From an uncultured Trueperaceae bacterium (lineage in GTDB: Bacteria > Deinococcota > Deinococci > Deinococcales > Trueperaceae), in the NCBI GenBank assembly GCA_963799485.1, contig CAWCXJ010000002.1, positions 1 through 64,000 of the forward strand: 64,000 nt of DNA. Direction: 5' to 3'. Below, one piece after another: positions 6,650 through 25,561 of the stretch (positions are counted from its first letter, which is position 1; the number at the start of each line of letters is the position of its first letter). Under the pieces are notes generated by a model. It was not told the origin of the DNA and searched no databases. It saw nothing but the letters and a program-made list of their open reading frames with translations. The translations under genes were made by a program, and so were the position numbers.

Positions 6650-6728
6650 TGTTATAATTAAAGCGCCCCCAGCGGTTGTTCTTGGCAGAGAACCGAAGGG
6701 GACATACACACGCGGAGGTGTGCAGATG
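6650..6728 (+). promoter_or_regulatory. Extended -10 promoter plus two-hairpin leader of HNH gene
   Basis: TGTTATAAT; CCCC-CGGTT..TTGGC..AACCG-GGGG; CACAC/GTGTG stem around GGAG. Confidence 0.75.
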
Positions 6729-7367
6729 AATCGTATCACGACTCACCCTATTGGTGAAAAGTTTTGGTTTTGGACTGTTCTCGGCGTGGCTCCGAGAACA
6801 AAGCAGATGCTTTACTACATCGTCGAATGCGAGTGCGGCGTAGTAAAAGAAGTTCAACGCGTCGCGCTTCTAAACGGGAAAACTAAAAGTTGCGGTTGTC
6901 AGTCAAGGCGCATGATCGCTGAGAGTCGTACAAGTCACGGCGCGTCCACGACGAACGGCAGAACGCCTGAATATCGCGCATGGTTAGCGATGAAAAATCG
7001 TTGCTCGAGTCCAAAAAGCCAACAGTGGGGAAATTACGGCGGGCGCGGTATTACAGTCTGCGAGCGCTGGCTTAACTCGTTTGAAAACTTTTTGGAGGAC
7101 ATGGGGCCGCGTCCCGGCCCTGGATATTCTTTAGACCGTGAGGACAACGAAAAGGGGTATTCACCGGATAACTGCCGGTGGGCTACAGCTAAAACGCAAC
7201 TGAACAACAGGCGTGCCAATCATTACCTCGAGTACGAAGGTCAAAGTATGACCTTGACGCAGTGGGCTGAAAAGTTGGGCATGGCGACTTATGTACTAAA
7301 GTCGAGGATTAAAAACGGCTGGACAGTTGCACGTGCTTTTAACGAGCCGGTCAAGAGCCGCAAATGA
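6726..7367 (+). CDS. HNH-like free-standing endonuclease
   Basis: ECECG, SCGC, YGGRGITVCERW, SLDREDNEKGYSPDNCRWAT; start moved to ATG 6726 after GGAGG. Confidence 0.85.
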   Translation: MNRITTHPIGEKFWFWTVLGVAPRTKQMLYYIVECECGVVKEVQRVALLNGKTKSCGCQSRRMIAESRTSHGASTTNGRTPEYRAWLAMKNRCSSPKSQQWGNYGGRGITVCERWLNSFENFLEDMGPRPGPGYSLDREDNEKGYSPDNCRWATAKTQLNNRRANHYLEYEGQSMTLTQWAEKLGMATYVLKSRIKNGWTVARAFNEPVKSRK

Positions 7368-8812
7368 GCAACTTAGCGATTGACCAAAACCCGTTCGCTA
7401 CGCTGGACATTTACGCCGAAAATGGCGTGCAGCCTGAAGCGCCTCGTGTTGATTGCATATCGACCATCAGCGCCGGTACCAAGAAAAAGACCGTCAAAAA
7501 CGGCAAAGAAGTTTGGTATCCGGTCGCGTCACGTGATGGCACGATATGCCACCATGACCCGGAGGGGCGCGCTCCGGGACTTGCGGCGATGCTCCGTAAA
7601 GACCCGAAAAAACTTACGATTACGTTTCCGTTTGACAATCCCAAACAGTTTATTCAACAGCGGTTTGTCAGATACAGCGCGTCGCGCCTCGAGGTCTACG
7701 GCGATGAGCATAGTTTGACGGAGATTAAACTCAGCGGCCCTCAGGACAAACCCGTAGCAACTCGGGTAATACATGAATCAGGCACCGAGGGATATGAGCA
7801 GCTACGCAAAACGTGCAAAGTCTCCTCGAGCGTGTATTTTCTCCTTGCTGAATGGGATGAGCAAGGCGTTCCCAGAGTTCTGTTTCCCGACGGTCTAGGC
7901 TTCCAAAGGCTCAGGTTCACCTCCAGAAATAGCCTGAGCAACTTTATGGCGCAGCTTAAGCTCGTACACGAATTCACGGGCGGGCGGTTAGCAGGCGTTC
8001 CGTTTGACCTCCGGCTGATTAACCGCGAAGTGTCCGACTCGACCGGCGCGAAACGCACTGTGCCGCTCTGGACGATTACTATGCGCCGTCCCGGTGAGAT
8101 GGCGATTACGAGCGATAACTTCCGGCACATCCTCACCTCCGGGCTTCATGCGGGCGACCAGCTCAAGCTGCCGCCGCCGAGCGCCGAAACCGTTGAGATG
8201 GTAGCGCTTGAGCCCGACCTAGACCTCGACGCCGTAACGCTGGACGAAGACGACATCCGGAGACTCGAAAACGGTATCGACCCTGGTCACCGCCGCCGTC
8301 AGTGGTTCGGTGCGGTACGGCATACCTACTTGGACGACGACGACGCGCGCGCCGAGTTTTTGGCCGAGTACGCGCAGGGGATCACGAGCTTAAACGACGC
8401 TGTGAAATATCTGGAACAGCCCGAATGGGACGCGGTGTTAGAGGCGGTCACGGTCACTGTGAGGGAGCGCGAAGAGGCGCGGCTGGCTGCCGAGCACGAG
8501 GCGCGCAACACCGACCCGCAGAGTTATCAGGAGGGCGTCACCGAGAAGCACGTGGCGTTTTTGAATGCGCAGCTAAAACGTGCTGGGGTACGTGACGCCG
8601 AACGGTTCGATTTTCTCTCGTGGCTCTTAGGTGACGAGATTCGCAAAAACGCCGACGTGACGCCCGAACACCTGGAGGCGCTAAAAGGGTTTTTCGGAAC
8701 CGTTAAAGACAATTTGTACCATCCGATCACCGACGGCAAGCTCGCCGACATGATGCACGACTATCACGAGTACGCCCGCAGCGATGAAGCCGCTTTGGAT
8801 GTTTTAGGTTAA
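7364..8812 (+). CDS. Gp3-like recombination directionality factor family protein with C-terminal extension
   Basis: ISAGTKK..YPV, CK....YFLL, GLGFQRLRFTSRNS, GRLAGVPFDLRL resemble the phiC31 gp3-like family. Confidence 0.6.
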   Translation: MSNLAIDQNPFATLDIYAENGVQPEAPRVDCISTISAGTKKKTVKNGKEVWYPVASRDGTICHHDPEGRAPGLAAMLRKDPKKLTITFPFDNPKQFIQQRFVRYSASRLEVYGDEHSLTEIKLSGPQDKPVATRVIHESGTEGYEQLRKTCKVSSSVYFLLAEWDEQGVPRVLFPDGLGFQRLRFTSRNSLSNFMAQLKLVHEFTGGRLAGVPFDLRLINREVSDSTGAKRTVPLWTITMRRPGEMAITSDNFRHILTSGLHAGDQLKLPPPSAETVEMVALEPDLDLDAVTLDEDDIRRLENGIDPGHRRRQWFGAVRHTYLDDDDARAEFLAEYAQGITSLNDAVKYLEQPEWDAVLEAVTVTVREREEARLAAEHEARNTDPQSYQEGVTEKHVAFLNAQLKRAGVRDAERFDFLSWLLGDEIRKNADVTPEHLEALKGFFGTVKDNLYHPITDGKLADMMHDYHEYARSDEAALDVLG

Positions 8813-8820
8813 ACCAGTTC

Positions 8821-8850
8821 AGCCCTCACCACATCCGGTGAGGGCTTTTG
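8821..8850 (+). terminator. Intrinsic terminator
   Basis: AGCCCTCACC-acatcc-GGTGAGGGCT-TTTG. Confidence 0.85.
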
Positions 8851-8918
8851 ACAGCTCGAGAGGTTGAGATGACATTAAAAAATAAGGGGCTCCTAGCCTT
8901 ACGGCACGCAGCCCATAC

Positions 8919-9377
8919 TTATTTTCCCCATATCAACGCATTCGGTAAATGTTGAGAAATTTTCAGCATTCCGAGATGTGCGAGAGCGTGGTGATTGGGG
9001 CAGAGCGCAATCAGATTGCTAGCGTCGTTGTTAGCCGAATCACCATCAATGTGGTGAACGTGAATGTGATAGGCAAACTCGCAGTAATGGCATTTGGATG
9101 TGTCAATAACAGCTCTGTATGGTCGCTCAATCTCGTTCCGGTATTTACGCTTTCTTTCATTGTTTTCAATTCGGCAGTTTTTACAGAATACCCCCATTAC
9201 ATCGCCTTTAGGCTTTCCGCAGCGCGTACAAAGGCTTTGAGCTTTCCGCTTAGCGTACTGCAATTTCCGAATGGGCTTAGCTTTCTCCAAACATCTATCA
9301 CAACATTTTTTGTTTTCAGAAAAGGTGGCATGTTTTGATTTACATTTGCTACAAATACGTTTTGCTAAAATACTCAT
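8919..9377 (-). CDS. HNH endonuclease with Cys-rich N-terminus
   Basis: CHYCE..HVHHIDGD..NNDASNLIALCPNHH; ATG 9377 after AGGAG. Confidence 0.88.
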   Translation of the reverse strand: MSILAKRICSKCKSKHATFSENKKCCDRCLEKAKPIRKLQYAKRKAQSLCTRCGKPKGDVMGVFCKNCRIENNERKRKYRNEIERPYRAVIDTSKCHYCEFAYHIHVHHIDGDSANNDASNLIALCPNHHALAHLGMLKISQHLPNALIWGK

Positions 9378-9457
9378 CAGCGCATCTCCTATGTGCGTTA
9401 GCGTCTGGGTTCGGCTGCCTGCCAAGAAAGCCGTCTCAGACGTGCTTTATTATAGCA
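9375..9457 (-). promoter_or_regulatory. Extended -10 promoter plus two-hairpin leader of HNH gene
   Basis: TGCTATAAT; CGTCTG-CGGCT..TTGGC..AGCCG-CAGACG; CTAAC; CGCA/TGCG stem around AGGAG. Confidence 0.78.
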
Positions 9458-9640
9458 CAAAAGGGGCTCCGAACTGTTTTTACACTGGCAGTTCAGAGCC
9501 GGGTGAATCCTACTACACCGGACGTGCCAGCCTTCAGATTCGCCTTAAGGATAGCAGAAACGGCGTTGCAGCAGCAAAACAGAAAGAGTATACTCGAGTC
9601 AAGCAAAGTGCCGGACGGCATTTTCTTAAGGCAACAAAAA

Positions 9641-9700
9641 CGCCCCTCAAACGGTGCTCTAACACCTCGGGGCGGTCAACCTATTGGGAGGCTGACAGTG
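9641..9700 (+). promoter_or_regulatory. Two-hairpin leader of HNH-AP2 gene
   Basis: CGCCCC-GGTG ctctaa CACC-GGGGCG, then GTCAaCC/GGcTGAC overlapping GGGAGG. Confidence 0.65.
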
Positions 9701-10423
9701 GATAGTTTACCGTTTTTTGACGGCAAGCGTCACGTGCTCGGGAGCTTGTGTAGCCGTAAGCACGATTGGCAGGGAACCGGCAAGAGTTTACGCTATAGGT
9801 CTAACAGGGACTGCGTATCTTGTCTTAGTTTAAGAGACCAAAGCAAGACAAACCCTAAAATTAGGCGAGACCTTCACTGCCAAAATGTCAAGCATTGGAT
9901 GGCTTTACAGGCGCTTGCGCCGAAGCCGAAAAGTGCAACCCTGGCAAACCCTTTAATTACTCCCCTTATCCCTTTGACTCGAGGGTTTTATGCTCGCGTT
10001 GACCGGGAGGACTATCCCGATTTGATAAAAACGCGCTGGCATCTTAACAGTCGTGGCTACGCCGTTACTACCAGCCACCCAAAAAATACAAAGCTTGTTG
10101 CAATGCATCGTGTGATTTTATGCGCGGCAAATGGGCAGATTGTAGACCACAAGGACGGCGACAGATTAAACAACGCACGGCGTAATCTGCGTATTTGCAG
10201 TGTCGCTCAAAACAACATGAACAGTGCAAAACCGAAAAACAGCCGGTCGAGATTTAAGGGGTTGTCTTGGGATAGCAAAAGAAGGTTTTGGAGAGTCAAA
10301 GTCCAATGCGACGGTAAAACACACGAAATTGGACAGTTTACTGACGAACTAGAGGCGGCAAAAGCTTACAACGTTGCGGCCTTGCGGATACAAGGTGAGT
10401 TTGCGAGGGTCAACGACTTATGA
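9698..10423 (+). CDS. HNH endonuclease with AP2 DNA-binding domain
   Basis: MHRVIL..VDHKDGDRLNNARRNLR; SRFKGLSW..GQFTDELEAAKAYN; GTG 9698 after GGGAGG. Confidence 0.88.
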   Translation: MDSLPFFDGKRHVLGSLCSRKHDWQGTGKSLRYRSNRDCVSCLSLRDQSKTNPKIRRDLHCQNVKHWMALQALAPKPKSATLANPLITPLIPLTRGFYARVDREDYPDLIKTRWHLNSRGYAVTTSHPKNTKLVAMHRVILCAANGQIVDHKDGDRLNNARRNLRICSVAQNNMNSAKPKNSRSRFKGLSWDSKRRFWRVKVQCDGKTHEIGQFTDELEAAKAYNVAALRIQGEFARVNDL

Positions 10424-10514
10424 GACTTTTTAACCGATCTAGGGCACGCAGTAATCAGAGTATAACCCCACGTGCCCAAAACTCAATAGATGGTGTGTGC
10501 TTCAGGGGGTCTTT

Positions 10515-10673
10515 ATGACCGCACTCGAGGCGCATCTGGCAGCAGAGGTTTTAGCTGCACAGTTGCTTGACGAACACCCGGACGTAGACAAGCTGCGCTT
10601 TATGCGTGAGCGGGCGGCGGAGCTGGTGGCGTTTATTGATGCTCGACTTGGCGAGATGGAGCGGGCGGCATGA
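10515..10673 (+). CDS. Small hypothetical protein
   Basis: 52 aa (MTALEAHL...), GGGGG SD, ATGA-coupled to next gene; below ORF-track cutoff. Confidence 0.6.
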   Translation: MTALEAHLAAEVLAAQLLDEHPDVDKLRFMRERAAELVAFIDARLGEMERAA

Positions 10674-11104
10674 GCGCCGTTTTGCCTCTACAGGAAATCC
10701 TAGAGGATAGGGTTAGCTTGGCCCCTACTGGCGTTGTAGGGCTCTACGCCCTCTTTCAAGGCGACGTTTTGGTTTATATCGGACAATCCCTGAACGTTCA
10801 CAAACGCGTTCTGACCCATATGCTCGAAGGGAAAAAGGATTTCGACTCTTACCGCGTTATCCCCACGCTGGCATCTGAGTTGTCCGAGTCAGAAGTTGCT
10901 TACATCGTAGAGTTCAAACCCCTCTATAACGCGAATATCCCGCCCAACAACCGTTACAAGAGCATCAATTTCGTTAAAAAGAATTATGAAATCCACGGCT
11001 TGAAGTTAAAGAAACTCATTCGGCAACACAACCTTACGCTGCTTAACTTTGGCCTTACGACCTACCTAGACATCGTAGAGTTTGAAGGCGTTTTCTATGA
11101 GTAA
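10670..11104 (+). CDS. GIY-YIG nuclease family protein
   Basis: GLYALFQGDVLVYIGQSLNVHKRV..E..YI..KPLYN. Confidence 0.8.
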   Translation: MSAVLPLQEILEDRVSLAPTGVVGLYALFQGDVLVYIGQSLNVHKRVLTHMLEGKKDFDSYRVIPTLASELSESEVAYIVEFKPLYNANIPPNNRYKSINFVKKNYEIHGLKLKKLIRQHNLTLLNFGLTTYLDIVEFEGVFYE

Positions 11105-12056
11105 CTACGGCGTCAGAGACGACCGTGAGCGCATCGCGTTCAACCCCGCGCATCTTGACGACTACGGCCTAGACCCTTACGAGTTCCGGGTCTATATGCG
11201 CCTTACGCGCCGCGCTGGTTCTCATGGTACAGCCTATGAGTCAATCAAAAACACTGCGCTTGCTTGCAAGATGAGTGAGCGAAAAGTGCGCTACGCCATT
11301 AAGGTGTTGTGCGCCTTGAAACTCGTTGGGCTTGTAGAAGAGGGCCGAGACAAGCCCAACATCTACACGCTTTTGGCTCACAGCAAATGGGCGAGTGCAG
11401 ATCGCGTTGATTCGCTCAGGGCTCAAGCTTTAGCAATCGATCCCGAAAAGCGCCCTAAGCACAAAAGCCCTGCACCTGATGCAGCCGTACCCCCTGCACA
11501 ATATGCAGCCCCCCCTGCACCTGATGCAGCCCCCCCCCTGCATGTCATGCAGACCCCCCCTGCACCTGATGCAGCCAAAGGTTCTCCCATAAAGGTAGCT
11601 CCCTTTGAAGGTTCTACCTATAAGGATGCGCCGCGAAAAAACAGCGGCTCACCTATTAAGAACTTTGAACCGCAGACCATTACACCATCAAAGCAAGCCT
11701 CTTCCGATGGTGACTGGTACATGGCGACCTACAACGAGTTGCGGCCCCGTGCCTGGAAGGGTTGCGAAGTCATCAATCCACACCGCGCTCGTAAACTCAA
11801 GACGTTTCGATCCGAATACGGAGACCGCGCCCCAGAAATATTCAAGGCTGCGCTGATTTTCGCACAACGTGATACGTGGTGGTCAAGCAAAAACCTGAGT
11901 TTCGACACGCTGTTTACTAATAACCACATGACGCAGTTTGCTGAAGGCGCAATGTCTGCTCTAAAAACCGGCGTAGACCCCGGCGTTGATGCTAAAACGC
12001 AGAAGTTTTACGAACGCAAAGAACGCTATCGCAACTTTGACTTGGGGCTGAACTGA
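11097..12056 (+). CDS. Replication initiator (winged-HTH, lambda O-like)
   Basis: N-terminal wHTH (ESIKNTALACKMSERKVRYAIKVL..NIYTL), internal iterons, C-terminal FDTLF. Confidence 0.8.
   Translation: MSNYGVRDDRERIAFNPAHLDDYGLDPYEFRVYMRLTRRAGSHGTAYESIKNTALACKMSERKVRYAIKVLCALKLVGLVEEGRDKPNIYTLLAHSKWASADRVDSLRAQALAIDPEKRPKHKSPAPDAAVPPAQYAAPPAPDAAPPLHVMQTPPAPDAAKGSPIKVAPFEGSTYKDAPRKNSGSPIKNFEPQTITPSKQASSDGDWYMATYNELRPRAWKGCEVINPHRARKLKTFRSEYGDRAPEIFKAALIFAQRDTWWSSKNLSFDTLFTNNHMTQFAEGAMSALKTGVDPGVDAKTQKFYERKERYRNFDLGLN
11468..11630. repeat. Putative phage origin: five palindromic iterons
   Basis: CCCTGCA-N5-TGCAG five times at 21-24 bp spacing, followed by AAGGT repeats. Confidence 0.75.
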
Positions 12057-12466
12057 TGACCCTGATAATCGCCGACAAAGCGCGGAGTTTGCCTAGAGAC
12101 GACGGGCTCACTGTAGCGCGTTGCAACCATTCTTCTACCCAAATGACGGTTGCGGAAATCAAAGCGGCACGCGCCGAGGCAATCCCGCCGGATGATTTTA
12201 CCGACGCGATTGCGCTGATCTGCGAACGGTTTGACCGTGAAATTAGCGAATCGATTGCACGGCAGTTTTACAGCACCTTAAAACAACACATGGGGGCTGA
12301 AGAGTTTGCCGCCGCTTACAACGATTTTTGGACGACCGAGATGTTTTTTGCCAACGTCATCCCGTTTTTCGTCAAGCACGTTCAGCGCCAGCGCGAAAAC
12401 GCCCCCGACCTGATCAGCTTGGGGATGGCTGAAGCATACAGACGGGGCGCTGAAACAAATGACTGA
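12056..12466 (+). CDS. Hypothetical protein (possible helicase loader/inhibitor)
   Basis: Position only. Confidence 0.5.
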   Translation: MTLIIADKARSLPRDDGLTVARCNHSSTQMTVAEIKAARAEAIPPDDFTDAIALICERFDREISESIARQFYSTLKQHMGAEEFAAAYNDFWTTEMFFANVIPFFVKHVQRQRENAPDLISLGMAEAYRRGAETND

Positions 12467-13304
12467 GGCTTTCCTGGTAGCCCTCGGTTTAGAGCGTGCG
12501 ACCTTTCAGACGTTTGCAGATCACGACGGAGCACCCTACCCGCGCATCATGCACGGGCCGCACCGGGCGGTAAAAAATAGACTCGAGGCACTCAACCGTC
12601 AAGGCTCCGGCGTGTTCGTTATGGCAAACGCTGGAGACCTTCAGGGTCGCCGCGCCGAGAACGTCGTGCGGATCAGCGCCTACTTTGCCGACCTTGACGG
12701 CGCGCCGCTGTTCGACGCTTACCCTTTGCCGCCGACCGCGATTGTCGAATCCAGCCCCGCCCGTTATCACCTGTACTGGCGGGTTACGGACGCGCCGCTA
12801 GAGAGTTTTGGGCACGTACAAAAGCACGTTGCAGGGTTGCTCGGCGGTGACGACAAAGTTCACGACCTGCCCCGCGTGATGCGGCTGCCGGGATATCTGC
12901 ACGCCAAAGCTGAGCCGTTTCAGAGTCGGATGTTAGAGCTTGACGCAAGCGCCGTGTACAGTCACGAGGCCTTTCTCGAGTCGTTCGCCGTACCCGTTTA
13001 CACGCCGCCAACTGCCCTTCCGCCTTTGCCCGCTGCCGCGCTCGCTTACTTGGGTAGAACGGGTGAGCACAAAAGCAGTAACCGGCACAAACTACTTGAG
13101 CGAGTTGCTACGGCAGGCAACGGCGGACGCAATGACACGTTGCACAAAATGGCCTGTGCTTTAGCGAATGATATCGCCGCCGGAACCCTAGACGCCGACA
13201 TTGCCCGCGCTGAACTCACCGAAGCTGCGCACATGGCAGGTTTAGAAGACCGCGAAATTAACTCGACGATTACAAGCGCCTTTAGATATGCGCGGGGCAA
13301 CTGA
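12459..13304 (+). CDS. RepB-like AEP primase with PriCT-like C-terminus
   Basis: YFADLDG, VESSPARYHLYW, DLPRVMRLPG, GGRNDTL..REINSTITSA. Confidence 0.85.
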   Translation: MTEAFLVALGLERATFQTFADHDGAPYPRIMHGPHRAVKNRLEALNRQGSGVFVMANAGDLQGRRAENVVRISAYFADLDGAPLFDAYPLPPTAIVESSPARYHLYWRVTDAPLESFGHVQKHVAGLLGGDDKVHDLPRVMRLPGYLHAKAEPFQSRMLELDASAVYSHEAFLESFAVPVYTPPTALPPLPAAALAYLGRTGEHKSSNRHKLLERVATAGNGGRNDTLHKMACALANDIAAGTLDADIARAELTEAAHMAGLEDREINSTITSAFRYARGN

Positions 13305-14068
13305 TGCGTGAGCGTGAAACGCAAGTAGACCCGCTTCAGACCATCAGTAGTACCGATCTGTTCGCCCTTGACCTCACGCCGCCCCCGATGATTGTGCCCG
13401 GTTTAGTTGCGACCGGGCTCAACATCATGGCGGCTGCGCCCAAAAGCGGCAAGTCGTTCGCCGCGTTGCAACTTGCCCACGCTGTTGCCACCGGCGGGTT
13501 CTGGCTAGGGCAAAAAGCTATGCAGGGCCGTGCCGTGTATTTAGCTTTAGAAGACACGCGTTACCGCCTCAAACACCGGATGCAAGGGTTGAAGCTGACA
13601 CCCACACCGATGCTCGAGTTTGCTACGGAGTCGTCAAGTCTAAAACTCGGCGGGCTCGAGGCCATTCACAACTACATTCACGAGAAGGGGGACGTAAAAC
13701 TCGTGATCCTCGACACCTTAGCGCGGGTAAAAGATACGGCGGTTGGTGGGGACAACGCTTACGAAACCGATTCACAGTTGGGCGGTGCATTACAGCAGGT
13801 TGCGTTCAACGGCGAGATCGCTTTTCTTGTGATCCACCATATGTCGAAGGCCAAAAATAAAGATTTCTTGCTTTCACTCTCCGGCTCTGCCGGTCTTCCC
13901 GGCGCGGCAGACGTGGTGATGGCGTTAGAGCGTGAGCGCAACGATTCTCACGCCAAGTTGCATGTGACTGGGCGCGACCTCGACGAACGGATGATTCACC
14001 TCGACTGGACACCAAATGGCTGGCGCACCTTTGAAGAGCAGCGTGCTCCTGATAGGGGGTTCAACTAA
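13304..14068 (+). CDS. RepA-like (AAA_25) replicative helicase
   Basis: AAPKSGKS Walker A, YLALED, LVILDT, IHH..K, SGS. Confidence 0.88.
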   Translation: MRERETQVDPLQTISSTDLFALDLTPPPMIVPGLVATGLNIMAAAPKSGKSFAALQLAHAVATGGFWLGQKAMQGRAVYLALEDTRYRLKHRMQGLKLTPTPMLEFATESSSLKLGGLEAIHNYIHEKGDVKLVILDTLARVKDTAVGGDNAYETDSQLGGALQQVAFNGEIAFLVIHHMSKAKNKDFLLSLSGSAGLPGAADVVMALERERNDSHAKLHVTGRDLDERMIHLDWTPNGWRTFEEQRAPDRGFN

Positions 14069-17721: not shown

Positions 17722-17819
17722 TGCCTAAAGACCTTACCCACGCCTCGGAAGCTGTGCGGCGGCGTAATGCTTTTGAGGGCATTGCAAGTGTTGAATTAAC
17801 GTCACAGACAGGAAATCTA

Positions 17820-17902: not shown

Positions 17903-18589
17903 GCAAGTGTACCGCGTATTTGTTCTTTTGATGGCTGTGGGCGTAAGCACCACGCTAAGGGTTACTGCAAGCTGCATCATCAACGACTTTCCAGAACCGG
18001 CACGACTGAGGTCGTTCTTCGACCACAAAGTATTTGTAGTGCAAAGGACTGCGGCAACAAAGTTCATAGTCATGGGTTGTGCGGCAAGCATGGTCGGCGA
18101 ATGCGTGAACACGGTTCCTTAGATTTGCCCGTTCGTGTTCGTGACAATGTTGCTTTGTTTTGGAGTAAGGTTAAAAAAACCGAAAATTGTTGGCTGTGGA
18201 CGAGTACCTTAAATGGGTCTGGTTATGGCATCATTTACATACGTCGCGGCAAACCTTACGGGGCACACAGGTTTTCTTTTGAGCTACATAAGGGGGTAAT
18301 CCCTGAGGGCATGTTTGTATGCCACACTTGTGATACACCGGCCTGTGTAAACCCAGAACATCTGTGGGTAGGTACACCAGCGGAAAATTCAGCTGATATG
18401 GTTCGCAAAAACCGCAAAGAACGTGGCAGCGCTCATTACATGGCAAAACTAACCGAGGCTGACGTGGTTAAAATTCGCCGCTTCGTAGCTGAAGGCAAGA
18501 CGCAAACAGAGGTGGCACAAGAGTTCGGGGTCACTTCAAGCCTCATTTCAGCAATTTGCCGTAGAAAATGTTGGCGTCATGTCAGGTAA
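17900..18589 (+). CDS. HNH endonuclease with C-terminal HTH
   Basis: CWLW..GYG..AHRFSF..VCHTCDTPACVNPEHL..EN..DM. Confidence 0.9.
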   Translation: MASVPRICSFDGCGRKHHAKGYCKLHHQRLSRTGTTEVVLRPQSICSAKDCGNKVHSHGLCGKHGRRMREHGSLDLPVRVRDNVALFWSKVKKTENCWLWTSTLNGSGYGIIYIRRGKPYGAHRFSFELHKGVIPEGMFVCHTCDTPACVNPEHLWVGTPAENSADMVRKNRKERGSAHYMAKLTEADVVKIRRFVAEGKTQTEVAQEFGVTSSLISAICRRKCWRHVR

Positions 18590-19109
18590 AAATTGGGAAG
18601 TTGAAGATATTAAGAATTCAGCTGTGCGGCGGCGTAATGCGGAGCTGTTTCGAGAACTGGAAGCCCCCCGTGCGTCTACTCAGAAGCCCAATTTGGCCCC
18701 GGTAACGCTCCAAACGGTTGAATATGTCCTAGCGGAGCCAGAACGCCTCAAAACGTCTCTCAGGCTTTACCTACCTTTCCCCCAATCGGTTAATGATTTG
18801 TACTCGACCGTTCGTAACCGTCGGGTACTGAGCGCCAAAGGGCGGGCCTATCACAAGGAGGTGTGCGCCATCGTTTTAGCCGAGGGTAAAAACGTAAAGC
18901 TGACAGGGAGAGTTTCCTATGCGCTCGTGCTTTATCCGCCGGACAAACGCCGCCGTGATTTGTCTAATTATGTAAAGGTGCTAGAAGACTCCTTAACCCA
19001 GGCGAATTTTTGGGCAGATGATTCGCAAGTTTGCGCGTTTCGGGTCGAGTGGGGCGAAGTCAGAGCCAGAGGCGCGGCGTATATCAAGATTTGGAGTGTT
19101 GATGTCTGA
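18579..19109 (+). CDS. rusA: RusA-family Holliday junction resolvase
   Basis: LPFPQSVN, PPDKRRRDLSNYVKVLEDSL..DDSQV. Confidence 0.88.
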   Translation: MSGKNWEVEDIKNSAVRRRNAELFRELEAPRASTQKPNLAPVTLQTVEYVLAEPERLKTSLRLYLPFPQSVNDLYSTVRNRRVLSAKGRAYHKEVCAIVLAEGKNVKLTGRVSYALVLYPPDKRRRDLSNYVKVLEDSLTQANFWADDSQVCAFRVEWGEVRARGAAYIKIWSVDV

Positions 19110-19864
19110 GTGTCCGCCTGCGCAGCACCTTAGCGCCCCACAACACCTATGGCACGCCGCCTACCCCGAACAGTTTGCTGGATGGTTGCAGCGTTTCCCC
19201 GAGATGCGAAATCTTTGTTAAACAAAAATCACCCTGCCTCTCCGCCACAGAGTGCAGGGTGCGCGCCTTCGCTATTGTACCGCGCCGCCGAGGTAACGAC
19301 TTGACGCAACTGAAACGTAAGCGAGTAGAGAACTCAGTGAACTGCCAGAGGCATTTGGCGAATGATTTATTTCTAGCCTTGCGCCGCTGCGAGCGCTCCG
19401 GCTGGCCGATGAGAACATCCGGTATGGGCTGGCTCGGCTTTCGCACGCTTGGTGGTCACGCTGGCCTCGAGCAGACCCCCCCCGACGCCGAGTTTCTTAA
19501 AATGCTGTCGCTTTCCGAACCGCGGCTAGGCTGCCCACCGCACGCAATCTTTATGCCGCGCGACCACTACGAGAGCTTTCACTATGAGCTGAGCCGGGAA
19601 GAGGCGGCTGTCTGGGACGACCTGGTGTTGCATAGGGCGACGCGGGCGGTGTGGCACATGAACCGGCACAGCGAGGCGAGGGGGGCCGAGTTCTATATGC
19701 AACGCAATCCGGAGGTGGACGAACGAACGGCGGAGCTGAGTCTGCGGTTGCTCGAGCGAGCGGAGATTGTGCGTATCTCGAGTGAAGCTGCTCGCGAGAT
19801 CGAAGAGGCGCGTAAGTCGGCAGAAGAGAAGATTAAGGGGGCGTTAAGTGCTGCACAAACTTGA
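19102..19864 (+). other. Probable single gene split by a +1 frameshift near 19213 (possible late regulator)
   Basis: ATG 19102 with GGAG SD ends at TAA 19221; the +1 frame stays open to 19864 without a good start. Confidence 0.45.
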
Positions 19865-19921
19865 TGTTGGGAGAACGTATGTGCTAATCTTTAACAAAAG
19901 TTCTGTCTAAATTTTCTACTT

Positions 19922-19980
19922 CGCCCCAGTTAGGGGCATTTTTCATGCCGCCGCGCTCTTCGGAGTGCGGCGTTTTTTTG
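19922..19980 (+). terminator. Two tandem intrinsic terminators before the late operon
   Basis: GCCCC/GGGGC-ATTTTT and CGCCGCGCTC-ttcg-GAGTGCGGCG-TTTTTTT. Confidence 0.8.
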
Positions 19981-19987
19981 GGGTGAC

Positions 19988-20482
19988 ATGCAGATATTAA
20001 GCGGTGAGCATAAGACAGTCGCCATAGACAGCGTTAGACCGCACCCGAGAAACGTTCGGCAGGGTGACGTTGGTTTGATACACGAGAGTATCGGCGCAAA
20101 TGGGTTTTACTCAGACATCATCGTGCAGAAGTCTACAGGGCTTATTATCGTTGGTAATCACCGCTGGTCGGCGGCGTTACAGGCTGGCGCTAAAGAAATC
20201 CCGGTAAAGTTTATAGACGTTGACGATGGCGCAGCCCTGCGAATCCTTTTAGCCGATAACAAGACTTCAGACAGCGCAATGAATGACGATGCGGCCCTAG
20301 CTGAACTGTTACAAGAGTTAGCAGGGGATGGTGGGCTCGAGGGTACGGGCTTTAGCGATGATGACCTTGACGAGTTGTTGAGTGACTTAAAAGAACCTGA
20401 GTTTAGAGAATACGATGAAAGCGTGGGTGACGGCGTGAAAATGTTGGAGTGTCCGTCTTGTGGTCATAAATACCCAGCTTAG
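19988..20482 (+). CDS. ParB/Srx N-terminal domain protein
   Basis: PHPRNVR, IIVGNHRW, LADNK; C-terminal CPSCGH. Confidence 0.88.
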   Translation: MQILSGEHKTVAIDSVRPHPRNVRQGDVGLIHESIGANGFYSDIIVQKSTGLIIVGNHRWSAALQAGAKEIPVKFIDVDDGAALRILLADNKTSDSAMNDDAALAELLQELAGDGGLEGTGFSDDDLDELLSDLKEPEFREYDESVGDGVKMLECPSCGHKYPA

Positions 20483-21548
20483 CTATCCTGAGCTGTTAAG
20501 TGCTGCATGGCAGGACGCCATAGCGCCGCGAGCAGACAATGCGCCGACAGTTATCAGCACGTTTGCAGGCGGCGGCGGCAGCACGACCGGGTACAAGATG
20601 GCGAGTTTTAATGAGCTGCTAGCGGTTGAGTGGGACGATAACGCCGTTCAAACTTTAGCCTTAAACTATCCCGATCTGCCGATCTATCACGGTGACATTG
20701 CAAACTTAAGCGTAGCTGAGACGCTAGAGCGCACAGGGTTAGAACCGGGTCAGCTTGACGTGCTAGACGGTTCGCCGCCCTGTCAAGGCTTCTCAACTGC
20801 CGGACGAAGGCTTTTAGACGACCCGCGTAACCAACTTTTTAGGGAGTACGTCAGGCTCTTACGCGGTCTTCAGCCTAAAGTATTTGTAATGGAAAACGTC
20901 AGCGGCATGGTTAAGGGAAAAATGAAGCTCGTCTTTGTAGAGATACTTAAGGAGCTAAAGGCTAGCGGCTACAACGTTTCGGCGCGGCTCTTAAACGCTA
21001 TGTACTTCAGCGTGCCTCAGTCAAGGGAACGCATGATATTTATCGGCGTGCGTAAAGACTTAGGGGTGCTGCCGAGTCATCCGAGCGGATTAAAAAAGAT
21101 TGTGACATTCCGTAAAGCCGTTATAGGCTTATCAGAAACGCTGCAAGATGAAAAAACAAATCATGTATGGGTTGACGAGGTTGCTCGAGGCACGAAATGG
21201 ATAGGCTCAGCATCACAGTTAAAAGAAGGCCAAAAGCTTATTCCTCACCTGCCAAGCAGCATTAGGGCTTGGATGGATAAGCCTTTGCCGACAATCCAAA
21301 AGAATGCTATGCCTAATCAGCCTGCCTATGTGCGAAACAGCACCATACACCCCAAGCAAGCTCGAGCATTAAGCGTTCGGGAGATGGCAAGGTGTCAGTC
21401 TTTCTCTGACGAATACCTTTTTGCAGATGCACTGAGAAATGGTATGCAGCGCATCGGTAACAGCGTCCCGCCCTTAATGATGAAAAGCATCGCAACTCAC
21501 ATAAAAAACGAGATACTAAGCCAAGCCCAACCCGCCGACGCTAGCTAA
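20460..21548 (+). CDS. DNA cytosine-5 methyltransferase
   Basis: FAGGGG, GSPPCQGFS, MENV, PQSRER, RIGNSVPP. Confidence 0.95.
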   Translation: MVINTQLSYPELLSAAWQDAIAPRADNAPTVISTFAGGGGSTTGYKMASFNELLAVEWDDNAVQTLALNYPDLPIYHGDIANLSVAETLERTGLEPGQLDVLDGSPPCQGFSTAGRRLLDDPRNQLFREYVRLLRGLQPKVFVMENVSGMVKGKMKLVFVEILKELKASGYNVSARLLNAMYFSVPQSRERMIFIGVRKDLGVLPSHPSGLKKIVTFRKAVIGLSETLQDEKTNHVWVDEVARGTKWIGSASQLKEGQKLIPHLPSSIRAWMDKPLPTIQKNAMPNQPAYVRNSTIHPKQARALSVREMARCQSFSDEYLFADALRNGMQRIGNSVPPLMMKSIATHIKNEILSQAQPADAS

Positions 21549-21626
21549 GCGGCGCGGGTTTGTACCCCCCGCCTCTCATCCGGGGCGGGCTTCATATTCT
21601 ACGAAAGCGAGGTGTAAGCGAACATC

Positions 21627-22133
21627 ATGGCGTTGAACAAAAGTTCACAAGACATTCTTGAAGACAGACGCCGCGAAGTTGCTGCACTTCGCCGTCGTCG
21701 TTTGACCGTCCGGCAGATTGTGAGCGCACTTGAGCGAGCTGATCGCGTCAACCCTAAGACTAAAAAGCCCTGGGGTGTTGCCACGATTCAAGGCGACCTT
21801 AAAGCCCTCCGCGCCGAGGCGCACCGTGAGGCGTTAAAAGACACAAGCGAACACAAAGCCGAGTTCTTAGCTGACTATCAGGAGCTTATCCGGCTCGCGT
21901 GGTTAGAAAAACGTTATGAAGACGTGCGTAAAGTCCTAAAAGACATGCGTGAACTGCTCGGCACCGACGCGCCGCAGGTGGTGGTGTATGAGCAGCTAAA
22001 TAATGAATACGACGCTGCACTAGGGAGGCTCGAGCGTGAGTTTGGACATGACCCGGCCCTCCTCGGGCGTATCTACGACACGCTTACCGACGCTTCGGGA
22101 CAGGATAGCGGCGCGGCGCGAAGCGTCAACTGA
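21627..22133 (+). CDS. Terminase small subunit (putative)
   Basis: HTH-like N-terminus directly upstream of the large subunit. Confidence 0.65.
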   Translation: MALNKSSQDILEDRRREVAALRRRRLTVRQIVSALERADRVNPKTKKPWGVATIQGDLKALRAEAHREALKDTSEHKAEFLADYQELIRLAWLEKRYEDVRKVLKDMRELLGTDAPQVVVYEQLNNEYDAALGRLEREFGHDPALLGRIYDTLTDASGQDSGAARSVN

Positions 22134-23394
22134 CGCACCGCCCGCTCTCGAGCTCTACCCCAAACAAGCCGAAATTATCAACGACCCGGCCCGCTTTACG
22201 ATTACCGAGGCAACTACAAAGGCGGGCAAAACTTTAGGACACCTCAAATGGCAGATAGACGAAATCTATCAGTCCGGCAGAGGCAACCACTGGTGGGTCG
22301 CGCCTATCAGCGACCAGGCCGACATTGCTTACCGCCGCGCACAAGACTACCTGCGCGGCTTTGTAGACGCGTCCGGCAAGCTCGAGAAGATAGGGAACGC
22401 TGTTCCCTTCGCTAAAAACGACACTCGTAAATACATTGACGTGTACGGTGCGCGGTGGTGGTTTAAGTCTGCCGACAACCCTGACAGCCTCTACGGTGAG
22501 GACGTGTACACGCTCGTCACCGACGAGATCAGCCGTTGGAAGGAGCAGGCATGGACGGCGTGCTACTCGACGTTGACAGCCACGCAGGGACGCGCCAAAC
22601 TGATTGGCAACGTCAAAGGACGGCGCAACTTCGCCTATAAGCTGGCGCGTAAAGCCGAAGCGGGTGAGCCGGGCTGGAGCTATCACCGGCTGACGGCTGC
22701 CGACGCCATCGAAGGCGGCGTGATCGACGCGCACATCGTCGAGCAGGCGCGGCGTGACCTACCTGAGCATGTCTTCAAAGAGCTGTACGAAGCCGAGGCC
22801 GCTGACGACGGCGCAAACCCGTTTGGGCTGGTCGCGATTGAAGCGTGTTATAGGCCGGTGCAGAGCAGCGCTCCGGTAAGCGTATACGGGTGCGACTTAG
22901 CTAAGAGTATCGACTGGACTTGGGTTATCGGCCTAGACGCCGACGGTAACGAATGCTTTAGCGAACGCTGGCAGGGGCCGTGGGGTGAGACGAAGCGCAA
23001 GATACTCGAGCTGACGCGTGGCGTGCATACGCTTTGTGACAGTTCGGGCGTGGGCGACCCCATCGTCGAAGAGCTGCAAGAGTCACATGACAAACTTCTT
23101 GGATTTAAGTTTTCCAGTTCCAGCAAACAACAGCTCATGTTAGGCCTGGCGAGCGCGCTGCAAAGCCAGACGATTCACTACAGCGACCCGCGTCTAAAGT
23201 TTGAACTCGAGGCGTTTGAATATGTCTACAGTGCAACCGGCGTTAAGTACAGCGCACCCTCCGGTGAGCACGATGATGGTGTCGTGGCCTTAGCTTTAGC
23301 TGAACGGATGCGGCAGACGGTGCCGGTTGCACCCCGCCAAGCCTCGGCAAGCGCTCAAATAACTGCACTTAGAAAACTTGCCCGGAAGGGGTGA
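22036..23394 (+). CDS. Terminase large subunit
   Basis: ATTKAGKT, LVTDE, GCDLA, CDSSGVG, HDDGVVALALA. Confidence 0.9.
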   Translation: MSLDMTRPSSGVSTTRLPTLRDRIAARREASTDAPPALELYPKQAEIINDPARFTITEATTKAGKTLGHLKWQIDEIYQSGRGNHWWVAPISDQADIAYRRAQDYLRGFVDASGKLEKIGNAVPFAKNDTRKYIDVYGARWWFKSADNPDSLYGEDVYTLVTDEISRWKEQAWTACYSTLTATQGRAKLIGNVKGRRNFAYKLARKAEAGEPGWSYHRLTAADAIEGGVIDAHIVEQARRDLPEHVFKELYEAEAADDGANPFGLVAIEACYRPVQSSAPVSVYGCDLAKSIDWTWVIGLDADGNECFSERWQGPWGETKRKILELTRGVHTLCDSSGVGDPIVEELQESHDKLLGFKFSSSSKQQLMLGLASALQSQTIHYSDPRLKFELEAFEYVYSATGVKYSAPSGEHDDGVVALALAERMRQTVPVAPRQASASAQITALRKLARKG

Positions 23395-23395
23395 C

Positions 23396-24763
23396 ATGGC
23401 AAAGAGAAAAGCGACACCTAAATCACAGTCACCCCCCAGCGGGATGCAAGCGGCGGCGCTCGCCTCGGTGCGCGTCCCGAATGCCCGCGAAAGCAAAGAC
23501 CCTTACGGCGGCTTTAGCAGCGCCCTACCTGTTTTTACAGAAACCTTTAGCGGCTTTCCGGGAGATTCGGCGCGTCGTCTTATCGGCGTGCTGCGTTACC
23601 TCGCGTCATTTGATGAGGACGCCGCGACCACGCTCAGACAGCTTCAGGCCGCCGTCAACACCGGGCTGAACTATGAGTTCCAGGGCGGCACGCGAGCTAA
23701 AAAGCAGGCTGAAGCCGAAGTGTGGGCGTGGGGTTCAAGGGTTTACGCGGGCGGTCTAAGTGGTCTCATCAACAATCAAGTACGCGAGAGCTTCGTGGGC
23801 GGCGCAACCTCGCTCGAATGGGTACCTCAGCGCAACCGTGAGGGCGTGCGTGAGGTCGTGCCGGTGCCGCGTGAGACGGTCTCGATAAGACGCGGTGACA
23901 ATGACGATCTGATTTACGAACAGGCGCTTATGGGGCGCACGGTTGAACTCAGCCCGGTTACTTATAGGTACGTACCGGTCGAGACAGAAGCCGACAAACT
24001 GCACGGCGTCCCGTTGGCCCTCGCTGCAATCGAAGCCCTGGACCGCAAACGCACCCTCTTGACGGCAGAGCAGCGCATTATCAAGCTTAAGGAGAAGCTC
24101 GCGCTTGTGGTGGCGACGTTGCCGATGCCTTCCCCCTCGAGCCTCGGCTATCAGACAACCGATGACGAGGGCTACGCCGACGCTGCCGGTGAGCTGCTCA
24201 GCACCTACGTCAACCTGCTTGTTGAGACCGGCGACAAACTCGGTGTGTATGCGGGTTGGGAGACCGCCGACGGCAAACCGAACATTCAAAGTACGCCGAC
24301 CGACCAGAACGTTCAGGGGCTAGGCGATCTCACCAAAAGCAACCAGCACCGCGCTTGGAACGGCTTAGGCATCCCGCCTTTTCTGGCGGGTGAGATGGGT
24401 AGCACGAATTACGCCCTTGCTAGGGTCGTCATGCCGTCGTTTTACACCATTGCGGACAACATCCAGCGGGCAATTCTGGCGCAAATTGAACACGGTGTAA
24501 ATCTGCATTTGCGTCTAGCAGGTATCCCGGCAAAGGTATGGGTAAGTTTTAAGCCGCGTCCGTCGGCATTTGAAGACGATGAAGCGACCGCGCGCGAGAC
24601 CCGCGCAAAAACCGACACGCTACTTTACAAACTCTTGGGTGAGGCTTACATCCCGACCTTAGCAGCAAATTGGGACGTCAGCGTAGATGATCTTAAAAAG
24701 GCGCTTAAGGATAAACCCGAGCCGCCAGACCCGCCCGAAGGAGGCGACGATGGAGAACAATAA
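23396..24763 (+). CDS. Portal protein
   Basis: Size and position after terminase; HGVPL..A, LGIPPFLAG..STNYA. Confidence 0.8.
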   Translation: MAKRKATPKSQSPPSGMQAAALASVRVPNARESKDPYGGFSSALPVFTETFSGFPGDSARRLIGVLRYLASFDEDAATTLRQLQAAVNTGLNYEFQGGTRAKKQAEAEVWAWGSRVYAGGLSGLINNQVRESFVGGATSLEWVPQRNREGVREVVPVPRETVSIRRGDNDDLIYEQALMGRTVELSPVTYRYVPVETEADKLHGVPLALAAIEALDRKRTLLTAEQRIIKLKEKLALVVATLPMPSPSSLGYQTTDDEGYADAAGELLSTYVNLLVETGDKLGVYAGWETADGKPNIQSTPTDQNVQGLGDLTKSNQHRAWNGLGIPPFLAGEMGSTNYALARVVMPSFYTIADNIQRAILAQIEHGVNLHLRLAGIPAKVWVSFKPRPSAFEDDEATARETRAKTDTLLYKLLGEAYIPTLAANWDVSVDDLKKALKDKPEPPDPPEGGDDGEQ

Positions 24764-24765
24764 TA

Positions 24766-24841
24766 TGCTATAATATATGTGCCACACGGTACTCTTTGGA
24801 CGGATACCGGGCGGCACTAACCACGTTAGGAGTGGCTAATG
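24766..24841 (+). promoter_or_regulatory. Extended -10 promoter plus two-hairpin leader of HNH gene
   Basis: TGCTATAAT; GTGCC-CGGTA..TTTGGA..TACCG-GGCAC; TAaCCAC/GTGGcTA around AGGAG. Confidence 0.78.
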
Positions 24842-25552: not shown

Positions 25553-25561
25553 AAGGAGAAT

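Follow-up and report, generated by a model that had tools for sequence, protein, structure and literature searches.

Compact promoter-hairpin leaders of unrelated HNH nuclease genes in a temperate prophage of an uncultured Trueperaceae bacterium

The first 64 kb of contig C2 (87,954 bp; CAWCXJ010000002.1, positions 1 to 64,000) in the genome assembly GCA_963799485.1 of an uncultured Trueperaceae bacterium, hereafter called the window, were classified by PHROG and Pfam scans as a temperate siphophage-like prophage. It carries five genes for HNH nucleases (HNH1 to HNH5), each preceded by a leader with two consecutive hairpins, and four of these leaders start with an extended -10 promoter motif, TGnTAwAAT. 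The assembly (3.65 Mb in 15 contigs) is 99.99% complete, with a contamination estimate of 4.63%, and holds a sibling prophage on contig C3 (52.6 kb) that is colinear with C2 from 1880 to 58740 in reverse orientation. Shared blocks are 75 to 97% identical; the immunity regions are alike (97% over 1880-4124), whereas the head module and the HNH insertions differ. C3 could represent a second prophage or a second strain within the assembly. The features of the five leaders and their open reading frames (ORFs) are given below; promoters were located by motif and hairpins by folding, SD stands for the Shine-Dalgarno sequence, and A-type and B-type are the leader types treated further below.

6650-6658 (+): extended -10 promoter TGTTATAAT of HNH1, with no recognisable -35
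6667-6701 (+): hairpin 1 of HNH1, A-type, CCCC-AG-CGGTT-G-TTCT[TGGC]AGAG-AACCG-AA-GGGG, -15.4 kcal/mol
6709-6722 (+): hairpin 2 of HNH1, CACGC[GGAG]GTGTG, SD in the loop and 3' arm, 3 nt before the ATG
6726-7367 (+): HNH1 ORF, 213 aa, phrog_374
8919-9377 (-): HNH2 ORF, 152 aa, phrog_8048, Pfam HNH_3 below the cut-off
9363-9371 (+): fifth copy of the motif, TGCTAAAAT, antisense in HNH2 codons 2-6, facing the HNH2 promoter and pointing towards HNH3, 335 nt before HNH3
9381-9397 (-): hairpin 2 of HNH2, CGCA..TGCG with AGGAG in the loop, weak, -2.4 kcal/mol
9402-9442 (-): hairpin 1 of HNH2, A-type, CGTCTG-AGA-CGGCT-T-TCT[TGGC]AGG-C-AGCCG-AACC-CAGACG, -16.0 kcal/mol
9449-9457 (-): extended -10 promoter TGCTATAAT of HNH2, 3 nt inside the insert edge
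9586-9594 (+): degenerate promoter GAGTATACT before HNH3, aligning with TGGTATGCT of the solo module of C3
9609-9633 (+): remnant of an A-type hairpin, 5' half (..TTTTCTTAAGGCA), homologous to the solo hairpin of C3
9641-9674 (+): hairpin 1 of HNH3, CGCCCC..GGTG[CTCTAA]CACC..GGGGCG, -14.3 kcal/mol
9675-9696 (+): hairpin 2 of HNH3, GTCA.CC[TATTGGGA]GG.TGAC, SD in the loop and 3' arm
9698-10423 (+): HNH3 ORF, 241 aa, GTG start, HNH_3 and AP2-like domain, phrog_99
17820-17828 (+): extended -10 promoter TGCTAAAAT of HNH4
17835-17870 (+): hairpin 1 of HNH4, B-type, GTC-A-GCCGG..GGTT[TGCA]GACC..CCGGC-GC-GAC, -16.5 kcal/mol
17869-17899 (+): hairpin 2 of HNH4, 9-bp stem ACAAAACCA/TGGTTTTGT around GGGAGAG, -11.2 kcal/mol, ending at the ATG
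17900-18589 (+): HNH4 ORF, 229 aa, HNH_3 and C-terminal helix-turn-helix (HTH), phrog_3593, overlapping the start of a rusA-like gene (18579)
24766-24774 (+): extended -10 promoter TGCTATAAT of HNH5, starting 3 nt after the stop codon of the portal gene
24779-24817 (+): hairpin 1 of HNH5, divergent A-type, GTGCC-ACA-CGGTA-C-TCT[TTGGAC]GGA-TACCG-GGC-GGCAC, -16.6 kcal/mol
24821-24835 (+): hairpin 2 of HNH5, CCAC[GTTAGGA]GTGG
24839-25552 (+): HNH5 ORF, 237 aa, Pfam HNH PF01844, phrog_1035

The nucleases behind these leaders do not resemble each other. BLASTP among HNH1 to HNH5 gave no pair at E < 0.1 (best E 0.15), and the best PHROG is a different one for each gene (374, 8048, 99, 3593 and 1035). 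A nuclease domain of the homing endonuclease families (Pfam HNH_3 or HNH) is present in HNH3, HNH4 and HNH5; HNH1 is recognised by PHROGs only (phrog_374, E 8.5e-64). At 152 to 241 aa these are small HNH proteins of the ordinary phage kind, and their DNA-binding parts are of the AP2, HTH or zinc-finger type. C3 contains two ORFs of the HNH1 family, behind the leaders at 11231 (-) and 43165 (-), and a third HNH gene (~48108, -) that has no such leader. Over C2 and C3 there are eight promoter-hairpin modules, seven of which precede HNH genes. Those on C3 are the following.

C3 11231 (-): leader TGTTATAAT followed by two hairpins, before an HNH1-family gene
C3 43165 (-): B-type leader TGCTATGAT and hairpin 1 (GTCAGCCGG..TTGCA..CCCGGCGCG) before an HNH1-family gene, homologous to the HNH4 leader
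C3, before replication-module genes and without a nuclease gene: solo module TGGTATGCT, 14 nt, then CACCCGTCGG-TGT-TTCT[TGGC]AGAA-GT-CCGACGGGTG, -21.1 kcal/mol

TGNTAWAAT occurs at five sites in the window, where 1.47 ± 1.16 are expected from 100 dinucleotide shuffles; five sites were reached in 1 of the 100. On C2 the motif has a density of 0.057 per kb, as opposed to ~0.011 per kb outside C2 and C3 (37 sites in 3.5 Mb). Taken by itself, the number of sites is only a little out of the ordinary; their positions are what matters. Four of the five sites lie 73 to 80 nt upstream of the start codons of HNH1 (6726), HNH2 (9377, -), HNH4 (17900) and HNH5 (24839). When ORFs were called with a crude caller on C2 and C3, the strict motif was found near the 5' end of 5 of the 8 calls that overlap an HNH gene and of none of the 204 other calls (Fisher p = 1.6e-8). 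Also, a -10 element followed by two hairpins was found, by eye, in four HNH gaps only among the 22 plus-strand upstream gaps of at least 45 nt between 1 and 58 kb. On the host chromosome the same motif is used with a -35, for example TTGACA-N17-TGGTATAAT on contig C7. As a promoter motif, TGnTAwAAT is specific to the nuclease cassettes. All promoters and transcript starts given here are predictions from consensus spacing.

Two of the perfect motifs, at 9363-9371 (+) and 9449-9457 (-), stand face to face ~80 bp apart, and their predicted transcripts overlap in antisense across the HNH2 leader. With such an arrangement the two transcription units could interfere with each other, or an antisense switch could operate between the HNH2 and HNH3 genes.

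Hairpin 1 follows the -10 element as an interrupted stem-loop that is 34 to 41 nt long and remarkably uniform in stability, with folding energies of -14.3 to -17.2 kcal/mol in seven leaders of different sequence. In the six promoter-bearing leaders it starts 4 to 10 nt past the -10 hexamer. Hairpin 2, which follows after a spacer of 0 to 7 nt, is a short stem (-2.4 to -12.3 kcal/mol) that holds the SD in its loop and 3' arm in all seven leaders and ends 0 to 6 nt before the start codon. Compared with shuffled sequences, the minimum free energies of the five leaders gave z-scores of -2.35, -0.30, -1.49, -2.49 and -2.16; for eight leaders against dinucleotide shuffles, the Stouffer z is -5.9.

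An earlier note on this DNA, made from the letters alone, had described these leaders as preceding mutually unrelated nucleases, and this was borne out by the comparisons above. Its leader coordinates and motifs all check out (TGTTATAAT at 6650, TGCTATAAT at 9457 on the minus strand and at 24766, TGCTAAAAT at 17820), and so do its hairpin folds for all leaders, with CGGnn..TCTTGG..nnCCG present exactly in three copies whose stems differ and still pair. Two points need amendment. The distance of 4 to 7 nt that it gave from the -10 to the hairpin is in fact 4 to 10 nt, and the narrower range holds only if the GTC/GAC pairs of the leader at 17820 are counted. Furthermore, the HNH3 leader (9641-9700), for which it saw no obvious promoter, is preceded by the degenerate promoter GAGTATACT and the broken 5' half of an A-type hairpin (9609-9633).

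The A-type leader is found at HNH1, HNH2, HNH5 and in the solo copy; similarity among its copies spans the promoter to the SD, and the stems differ by compensatory changes. Since alignments made with MAFFT were structurally out of register, they were left out of the covariation counts; instead, a covariance model was seeded from the HNH2 leader alone and the four A-type copies were then realigned with it. In a search of 121.7 kb the seed model placed the other three copies on top, tied with one spurious match. In the resulting alignment standard pairing holds in 51 of 54 cells, both sides have changed in 8 of 14 pairs, among them all six of the outer stem, and the covariation score is 0.643 compared with 0.292 ± 0.082 in shuffles (reached by none of 500), values that come from four sequences aligned to the model's own structure and are biased towards that structure. 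When the pairing partners were slid by 1 to 3 columns as a control, pairing fell to 37 to 54% of the cells. The arms of hairpin 2 co-vary as well (CACAC/GTGTG, CGCA/TGCG, CCAC/GTGG). G-U pairs in the apical stem fit the sense strand; on the opposite strand they are A-C mismatches.

The same picture emerged in another genus of the family. In one genome of that genus (G016), two HNH_3 genes with different N-terminal architectures share one leader. Conservation covers its -10 region, its start region and the lower part of the hairpin 1 stem, while compensatory swaps affect the upper stem of this hairpin (GCCG/CGGC versus GGAG/CUCC) and both arms of hairpin 2 (CACCT/AGGTG versus GGCTC/GAGCC). The closest HNH1 homologue in IMG/VR (L004, 48% identity) has a leader of like layout and unrelated sequence. 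To judge from these comparisons, the hairpins are kept by compensatory changes.

Leaders and nucleases are not tied to each other. The A-type leader stands before three nucleases without detectable similarity, and the B-type leader (HNH4 and C3 43165) before an HNH_3 protein and an HNH1-family protein; HNH3 and C3 11231 have leader types of their own, and the ORFs of the HNH1 family have three different leader types. For the two B-type leaders, the -10 element is the exact point at which homology sets in, and the travelling unit thus consists of promoter, leader and ORF. These combinations show that leader type and nuclease family assort independently and suggest that the leader itself is a recombining module.

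Filled and empty sites further show that the nuclease cassettes, with their leaders, are inserts. HNH2, HNH3 and the cassette at C3 43186-42440 are present in only one of the sibling prophages at conserved sites, and HNH5 is missing from 6 of 8 related loci. The edges of the inserts coincide with the promoter for HNH2, HNH5 and the B-type cassettes, and one junction lies in a hairpin loop. In this respect the proposal of the earlier note, a portable cassette of promoter, structured leader and nuclease gene, is supported by filled and empty sites, by one leader type on unrelated ORFs and by compensatory stems. The repeats and boundaries are as follows.

8884-8893: 10-bp direct repeat AAGGGGCTCC, left copy, flanking the HNH2 insert
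8894-9460 (-): HNH2 cassette, 567 bp, with promoter, leader, ORF and a terminator-like hairpin with T run, absent from C3
9461-9470: 10-bp direct repeat AAGGGGCTCC, right copy, flanking the HNH2 insert
17750-17770: 21-nt direct repeat AGCTGTGCGGCGGCGTAATGC, left copy, in the duplicated 5' piece of the rusA-like gene
18620-18640: 21-nt direct repeat, right copy; the two copies flank HNH4

At the HNH2 site of C3 the flanks are joined at one copy of AAGGGGCTCC. The insert of C2 starts 3 nt ahead of its promoter's TG, lies at the 3' foot of a terminator hairpin, and has a terminal hairpin with T run built partly from the duplicated bases. A canonical terminator is found at 8826-8850, after the gene upstream, and a minus-strand terminator at 9466-9505 directly upstream of the HNH2 promoter. 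For HNH3, the stretch ~9635-10432 is absent from C3. Homology to the solo hairpin of C3 ends in the hairpin loop, right after ..TTCTT(AA)GGCA, and this is where the HNH3 cassette begins, which hints at a role for a DNA hairpin in cassette capture. The C3 cassette 43186-42440, absent from C2, has at its flank a second copy of 18 codons from the start of a methyltransferase gene, and the complete gene copy follows the nuclease. At C3 43236-42439 (-), the reading frame of the duplicated first 17-18 methyltransferase codons stays open across the promoter and both hairpins and joins that of the HNH ORF, for a total of 266 codons; an N-terminally extended nuclease is therefore possible at this site.

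Ahead of HNH4, positions 17721-17825 are a stub of 34 codons from the original 5' end of the rusA-like gene, and the stop codon of the stub lies inside the HNH4 promoter. The intact rusA-like gene behind HNH4 (18579-18640) starts with a different N-terminal segment, and the exact repeat of 21 nt marks the crossover. The HNH5 stop is directly followed by the SD of the next head gene. Of 11 related prophage loci fetched for comparison from another family of the order, 8 held both genes flanking HNH5, and in 6 of these 8 the portal gene and the next head gene are adjacent and leave no room for HNH5. In the remaining two the gap is 400-500 nt, and the one gap examined contains a small ORF without a recognisable leader.

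We then looked at how far the leaders extend beyond this phage lineage. Rfam gave no match in the whole window at the gathering threshold and six weak matches at E up to 5 over 6000-26000, none of which overlaps a leader; HEARO was not matched. Thus no known family was found at the leaders, a check that the earlier note had called for. A four-sequence A-type model returned its four training copies from its own genome plus one weak match in a helicase coding region (E 0.67), and nothing at E <= 0.1 from 127 other genomes of the family, for which stricter filters were applied. A DNA search of these 127 genomes with leader plus HNH1 was likewise without match, and within the Trueperaceae-level genome set the HNH1 protein was found in the window's own genome only. 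Pattern scans of IMG/VR yielded 50 stretches for the B-type, all in high-GC contexts without promoter or SD, and 20 for the A-type, none with closing stems. In metagenomes seven stretches were retrieved, of which none folds as A-type; the most similar (L254) lies inside an ORF of 329 aa. The pattern matches from both collections look like products of chance. Among 202 matches to a TCTTGG-type motif only the known copies were convincing as hairpins, and among 20 HNH_3 loci of the family the layout was seen in the two G016 leaders only. Megablast of window positions 6000-26000 against a phage collection gave no match, and the portal protein has no relatives in IMG/VR. Start codons in the fetched relatives are heuristic and several judgements of "same layout" were made by eye. 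By these scans, the leaders are modules local to this phage lineage and do not belong to an RNA family of wide distribution.

A homing endonuclease gene has to be expressed at whatever site it has landed in and must not harm its carrier phage. We consider it somewhat probable that the leaders serve this need as recombining autonomous expression modules of free-standing HNH homing endonucleases, in each of which a minimal promoter is combined with a protective stem-loop at the 5' end and an SD hairpin that throttles translation. The cassettes would have invaded the temperate siphophage-like prophage, each bringing along its own smallest workable promoter for the housekeeping sigma factor, an extended -10 without a -35. 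An extended -10 is the most compact way of carrying transcription along, and since it requires no -35, a cassette can sit 3 nt behind an upstream stop codon. Because hairpin 1 starts 4 to 10 nt past the -10 hexamer, it lies at about +1 of the predicted transcript, and transcription would start at its foot. In the mRNA, hairpin 1 would then form a 5'-terminal protective and insulating stem-loop, denying RNase J and an RppH-type pyrophosphohydrolase a single-stranded 5' end and leaving almost no unstructured leader, and hairpin 2 would reduce the access of ribosomes to the SD. The combined outcome would be a stable, weakly translated message and a low nuclease output that is independent of the landing site. 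Between unrelated nuclease ORFs, the leader would recombine from promoter to SD in the way of the promoter-stem-loop (PeSL) cassettes of T4-type phages.

We infer promoter activity, transcription start, stabiliser and throttle functions from sequence and fold. The host genome encodes RNase J (538.9 bits; cut-off, 400), and RNase E/G was not found in this 99.99% complete genome. According to the part of the review PMC3997798 that deals with it, RppH of B. subtilis requires at least two unpaired 5' nucleotides; the classical papers on 5' stem-loop stabilisers are listed there. Hairpin 1 is read as protective and hairpin 2 as the brake because hairpin 1 lies at about +1, because the host has RNase J with no RNase E/G found, and because the decay enzymes require an unpaired 5' end.

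Several observations weigh against this reading. Hairpin 1 lies farther from the predicted start in HNH3 (~40 nt past the degenerate promoter) and in the C3 solo module (14 nt past the -10), and therefore a strictly 5'-terminal role does not fit all copies. Hairpin 2 is weak in HNH2, HNH5 and HNH1 (-2.4 to -5 kcal/mol), with much of the SD left in the loop, and the throttle may be slight. Two other families supplied 40 HNH_3 loci; a start could be predicted for 39, of which 5 have TGnTAnnnT within 140 nt upstream and none, by eye, has a leader of the present kind; the layout is thus apparently not general in HNH genes, and most HNH_3 genes elsewhere in the order seem to be without it. Unrepressed strong promoters reading into the genes for the recombination directionality factor (RDF), rusA and the head should be costly to a lysogen, which makes some further control likely. 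Finally, TTCTTGGCAG is identical in three of the four A-type copies whose lower stems are wholly different, and TTGCA stands at the apex of three otherwise dissimilar hairpins (HNH4, C3 43165 and G016 33705). This conserved apical sequence argues against a pure stability element, since stability would not require a fixed sequence, and the conserved tip hints at sequence-specific recognition.

If the tip is recognised, hairpin 1 could be the site of a shared trans-acting RNA-binding regulator of phage or host that reads the apical loop and switches all cassettes together, keeping them, for example, silent in the lysogen. We regard this as unlikely on balance and still as the alternative to be taken most seriously. 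In its favour, loop and apical stem are the most conserved parts of the A-type while all six outer-stem pairs change on both sides, the TTGCA apex occurs on unrelated stems, promoters into the RDF gene, rusA and head genes would require silencing in the lysogen, and the C3 solo copy before replication genes means that the element is not tied to nuclease proteins. However, no candidate binding protein was identified, and the loops of HNH3 (CTCTAA), C3 11231 (CGCAA), G016 38760 (CGCAAA) and the IMG/VR relative (TTAGTAG) do not conform to a single motif. TTG(G)CA hairpin tips are not enriched on C2 and C3 either (0.48 per kb versus 0.30-0.52 per kb on the chromosome), and a shared apical sequence may reflect only recent common descent of the copies. 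A broader proposal, which we likewise find doubtful, is that the promoter-hairpin unit is an autonomous module for regulation and recombination, the temperate-phage counterpart of PeSL, existing with or without a nuclease gene, that its tip (UUCUUGGCAG or UUGCA) is read by a common silencing factor in the lysogen, and that the DNA hairpin is a preferred docking point for nuclease genes, as where HNH3 starts in the broken A-type loop.

Could the element act as DNA instead? A cruciform, a single-strand hairpin or simply ~55 bp of shared homology might be a hot spot for recombination or insertion at which cassettes are captured and exchanged, with any RNA role being secondary. The end of the C2-C3 solo homology in a loop where the HNH3 cassette begins, the position of the HNH2 insert, with its 10-bp duplication, at the foot of a terminator hairpin on the 3' side and the reassortment of leader types and ORFs all fit this idea, as does the role of PeSL cassettes as mediators of such shuffling in the account of PMC2839356. 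But a single junction in a single loop is an anecdote, and the HNH4, HNH5 and C3 43186-42440 cassettes were not inserted at hairpins. Exchange driven by homology requires no hairpin, yet pairing was kept compensatorily, and the apical G-U pairs would be A-C mismatches on the other strand. We therefore think a primary role in DNA improbable.

Still less probable is a transcriptional function of hairpin 1, either as an attenuator or terminator of read-through or of its own transcription or as a palindromic operator for a DNA-binding repressor at +1 to +40. Such a function would be in line with the stem-loops described in PMC2839356, where PeSL structures act as terminators or attenuators, and with the constant distance of 16-17 nt that separates CGG from CCG in every one of the four A-type copies; a means of control in the lysogen would also be useful. 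However, no hairpin 1 in any leader is followed by a U run, though the phage has canonical T-run terminators (8830-8850 and 19949-19972), and termination between the portal and head genes would be polar in a late operon. An operator is disfavoured by arms that differ between copies and change complementarily, which a sequence-specific site in double-stranded DNA would not require.

The idea of the earlier note that hairpin 1 is a ligand site or a nuclease-associated RNA, that is, a small-molecule site like that of a riboswitch or else an RNA that accompanies or guides the HNH nucleases, has in its favour only that one element with a fixed loop is common to different nucleases and is very improbable, since the element is a plain interrupted stem-loop of 34-41 nt without junction, pseudoknot or multi-helix pocket (riboswitches being multi-helix aptamers conserved across lineages, as opposed to a single hairpin whose A-type model has no match in 127 related genomes), loop-loop complementarity of the two hairpins was no better than in shuffles in all seven leaders (best runs of 2-5 nt, reached by 12-100% of shuffles), Rfam gave no match there at either threshold, the proteins are the ordinary HNH nucleases described above and one copy has no nuclease gene behind it.

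Control of homing endonuclease expression has been worked out mainly in lytic T4-type phages. The closest known arrangements to the leaders favoured here as expression modules are the ribosome-binding-site (RBS) hairpins of T4-type homing endonucleases and the PeSL cassettes. As described in PMC2988022, the T-even genes for I-TevI, I-TevII, I-TevIII and segB and Aeh1 mobE share with our cassettes a dedicated promoter just upstream, and the presumed aim in both is a low, controlled expression of the nuclease; the T-even hairpins involve the SD, and hairpin 2 may do so here, though its predicted stability is only -2.4 to -12.3 kcal/mol. In T4, according to the same description, the position of the late promoter keeps the hairpin's 5' arm out of the transcripts made from it, and only read-through transcripts are silenced. 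Here, in contrast, the -10 element lies 50-60 nt upstream of hairpin 2, and the predicted start precedes both arms. The comparison that the earlier note drew with T4 I-TevI thus applies to the second hairpin and not to the T4 promoter inside the hairpin, because the transcripts would contain both arms. Further differences are the host-type extended -10 in place of a phage late or middle promoter, the additional larger hairpin at the 5' side and the temperate phage with a host of another phylum-level lineage of bacteria.

PeSL of T4-type phages, in the account given in PMC2839356, are short intergenic units of a strong sigma-70-type promoter and a stable stem-loop that end at the SD and start of the next gene; a single phage genome holds repeated copies, in association with variable or accessory genes, and they are implicated in modular shuffling. 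The module described here is likewise repeated (eight copies in C2 and C3), and it lies at shuffling junctions, as seen from insert edges at the promoter, the junction in a loop, the reassortment of leaders and ORFs and the solo copy. The terminator-promoter composite ahead of HNH2 also resembles that of some PeSLs. The stem-loops treated in PMC2839356 are, however, mostly terminators within or upstream of the promoter, whereas hairpin 1 lies downstream of the -10, is predicted to be transcribed and has an SD hairpin, but no U run, behind it. Also, that account gives ~50 PeSL per genome before ORFans, as opposed to eight modules in two prophages, seven of them before HNH genes.

Two other kinds of element show likenesses as well. 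The stable hairpin at or near the predicted 5' end, the ribosome-binding region next to it and the RNase J of the host recall 5'-terminal stem-loop stabilisers of mRNA, which are known from the ompA, papA, aprE and ermC leaders; the conserved loop sequence is not a known feature of such stabilisers, and the 5' end is a predicted one here. Phage morons are promoter-gene-terminator units inserted between phage genes. HNH2, with its own promoter, its own terminator-like T-run hairpin, opposite orientation and absence from the sibling prophage, is like a moron, but the four cassettes in the same orientation as their surroundings have no terminator and read into downstream phage genes, and the cargo is a selfish nuclease instead of a gene of benefit to the host. 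All in all, the leaders are a real, well-defined feature and a local variant of known elements, namely of homing endonuclease expression control and promoter-stem-loop shuffling, and not a new class of RNA.

What the locus adds is another answer to the problem of nuclease expression, seen in a temperate phage from a group of bacteria that has received little study. It is very compact: the promoter takes up 9 bp and can follow a stop codon immediately, the leader of ~65 nt is structured throughout, and unrelated nucleases exchange it freely. The reach of the element is limited, since no copies were found in 127 related genomes and it is local to the phage lineage. With a pair of sibling prophages in the same assembly, filled and empty sites that compare cleanly, a solo module and a junction in a loop, the locus is a convenient natural system for the reassortment of modules and selfish genes, and the modules are candidates for compact, context-insulated expression parts in this bacterial group.

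The remaining annotated features of the prophage, from PHROG and Pfam scans, are listed below.

22-1347 (-): serine integrase
2705-3547 (-): CI-like repressor
7364-8812 (+): gene for a Gp3-like RDF, 482 aa, Pfam PF18897, 63.4 bits
11-14 kb: replication initiator and primase/helicase pieces
prophage window: DNA methyltransferase genes
18579-19109 (+): RusA (rusA-like gene)
22036-23394: large terminase
23378-24763 (+): portal, stop codon 24761-24763
27243-28343: major head protein
33044-39643: tape measure

The start of the Gp3-like RDF gene overlaps the stop codon of HNH1 (ATGA), and the terminator at 8826-8850 mentioned above follows this gene; tblastn found no counterpart of it in the sibling prophage C3. 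Other candidate elements considered for the leaders (a sigma-54 promoter, a -35 box in the loop, CsrA sites, an RNase III site and an anti-SD switch) were rejected on reading the sequence, because spacing, motif or helix length did not fit.

One further copy of TGCTAAAAT is found at C3 37595 (-). Within the next 35 nt there is a terminator-like hairpin, GGTGCCC-TACG-GGGCATC, with TTTT after it, and a very short transcript or small RNA could arise here. In the window, the counterpart of this site is the terminator-rich gap 19865-19987. Repeats were noticed at three other places. In the ORF 4982-5719, the stretch 5410-5700 consists of ~16 tandem 12-nt units (GGCGGCGACACG-like) that would encode a glycine-rich repeat. 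Three 26-nt direct repeats (CCCTGCACCTGATGCAGCC..) with a spacing of 45 nt at 11468-11583, inside an O-like replication initiator gene, resemble the iterons of replication origins. A 94-nt repeat with 94% identity is present at 16570-16663 and 17351-17444, 781 nt apart, and a second repeat pair at 16379 and 17160; these paired repeats indicate a tandem duplication of a block of two genes.

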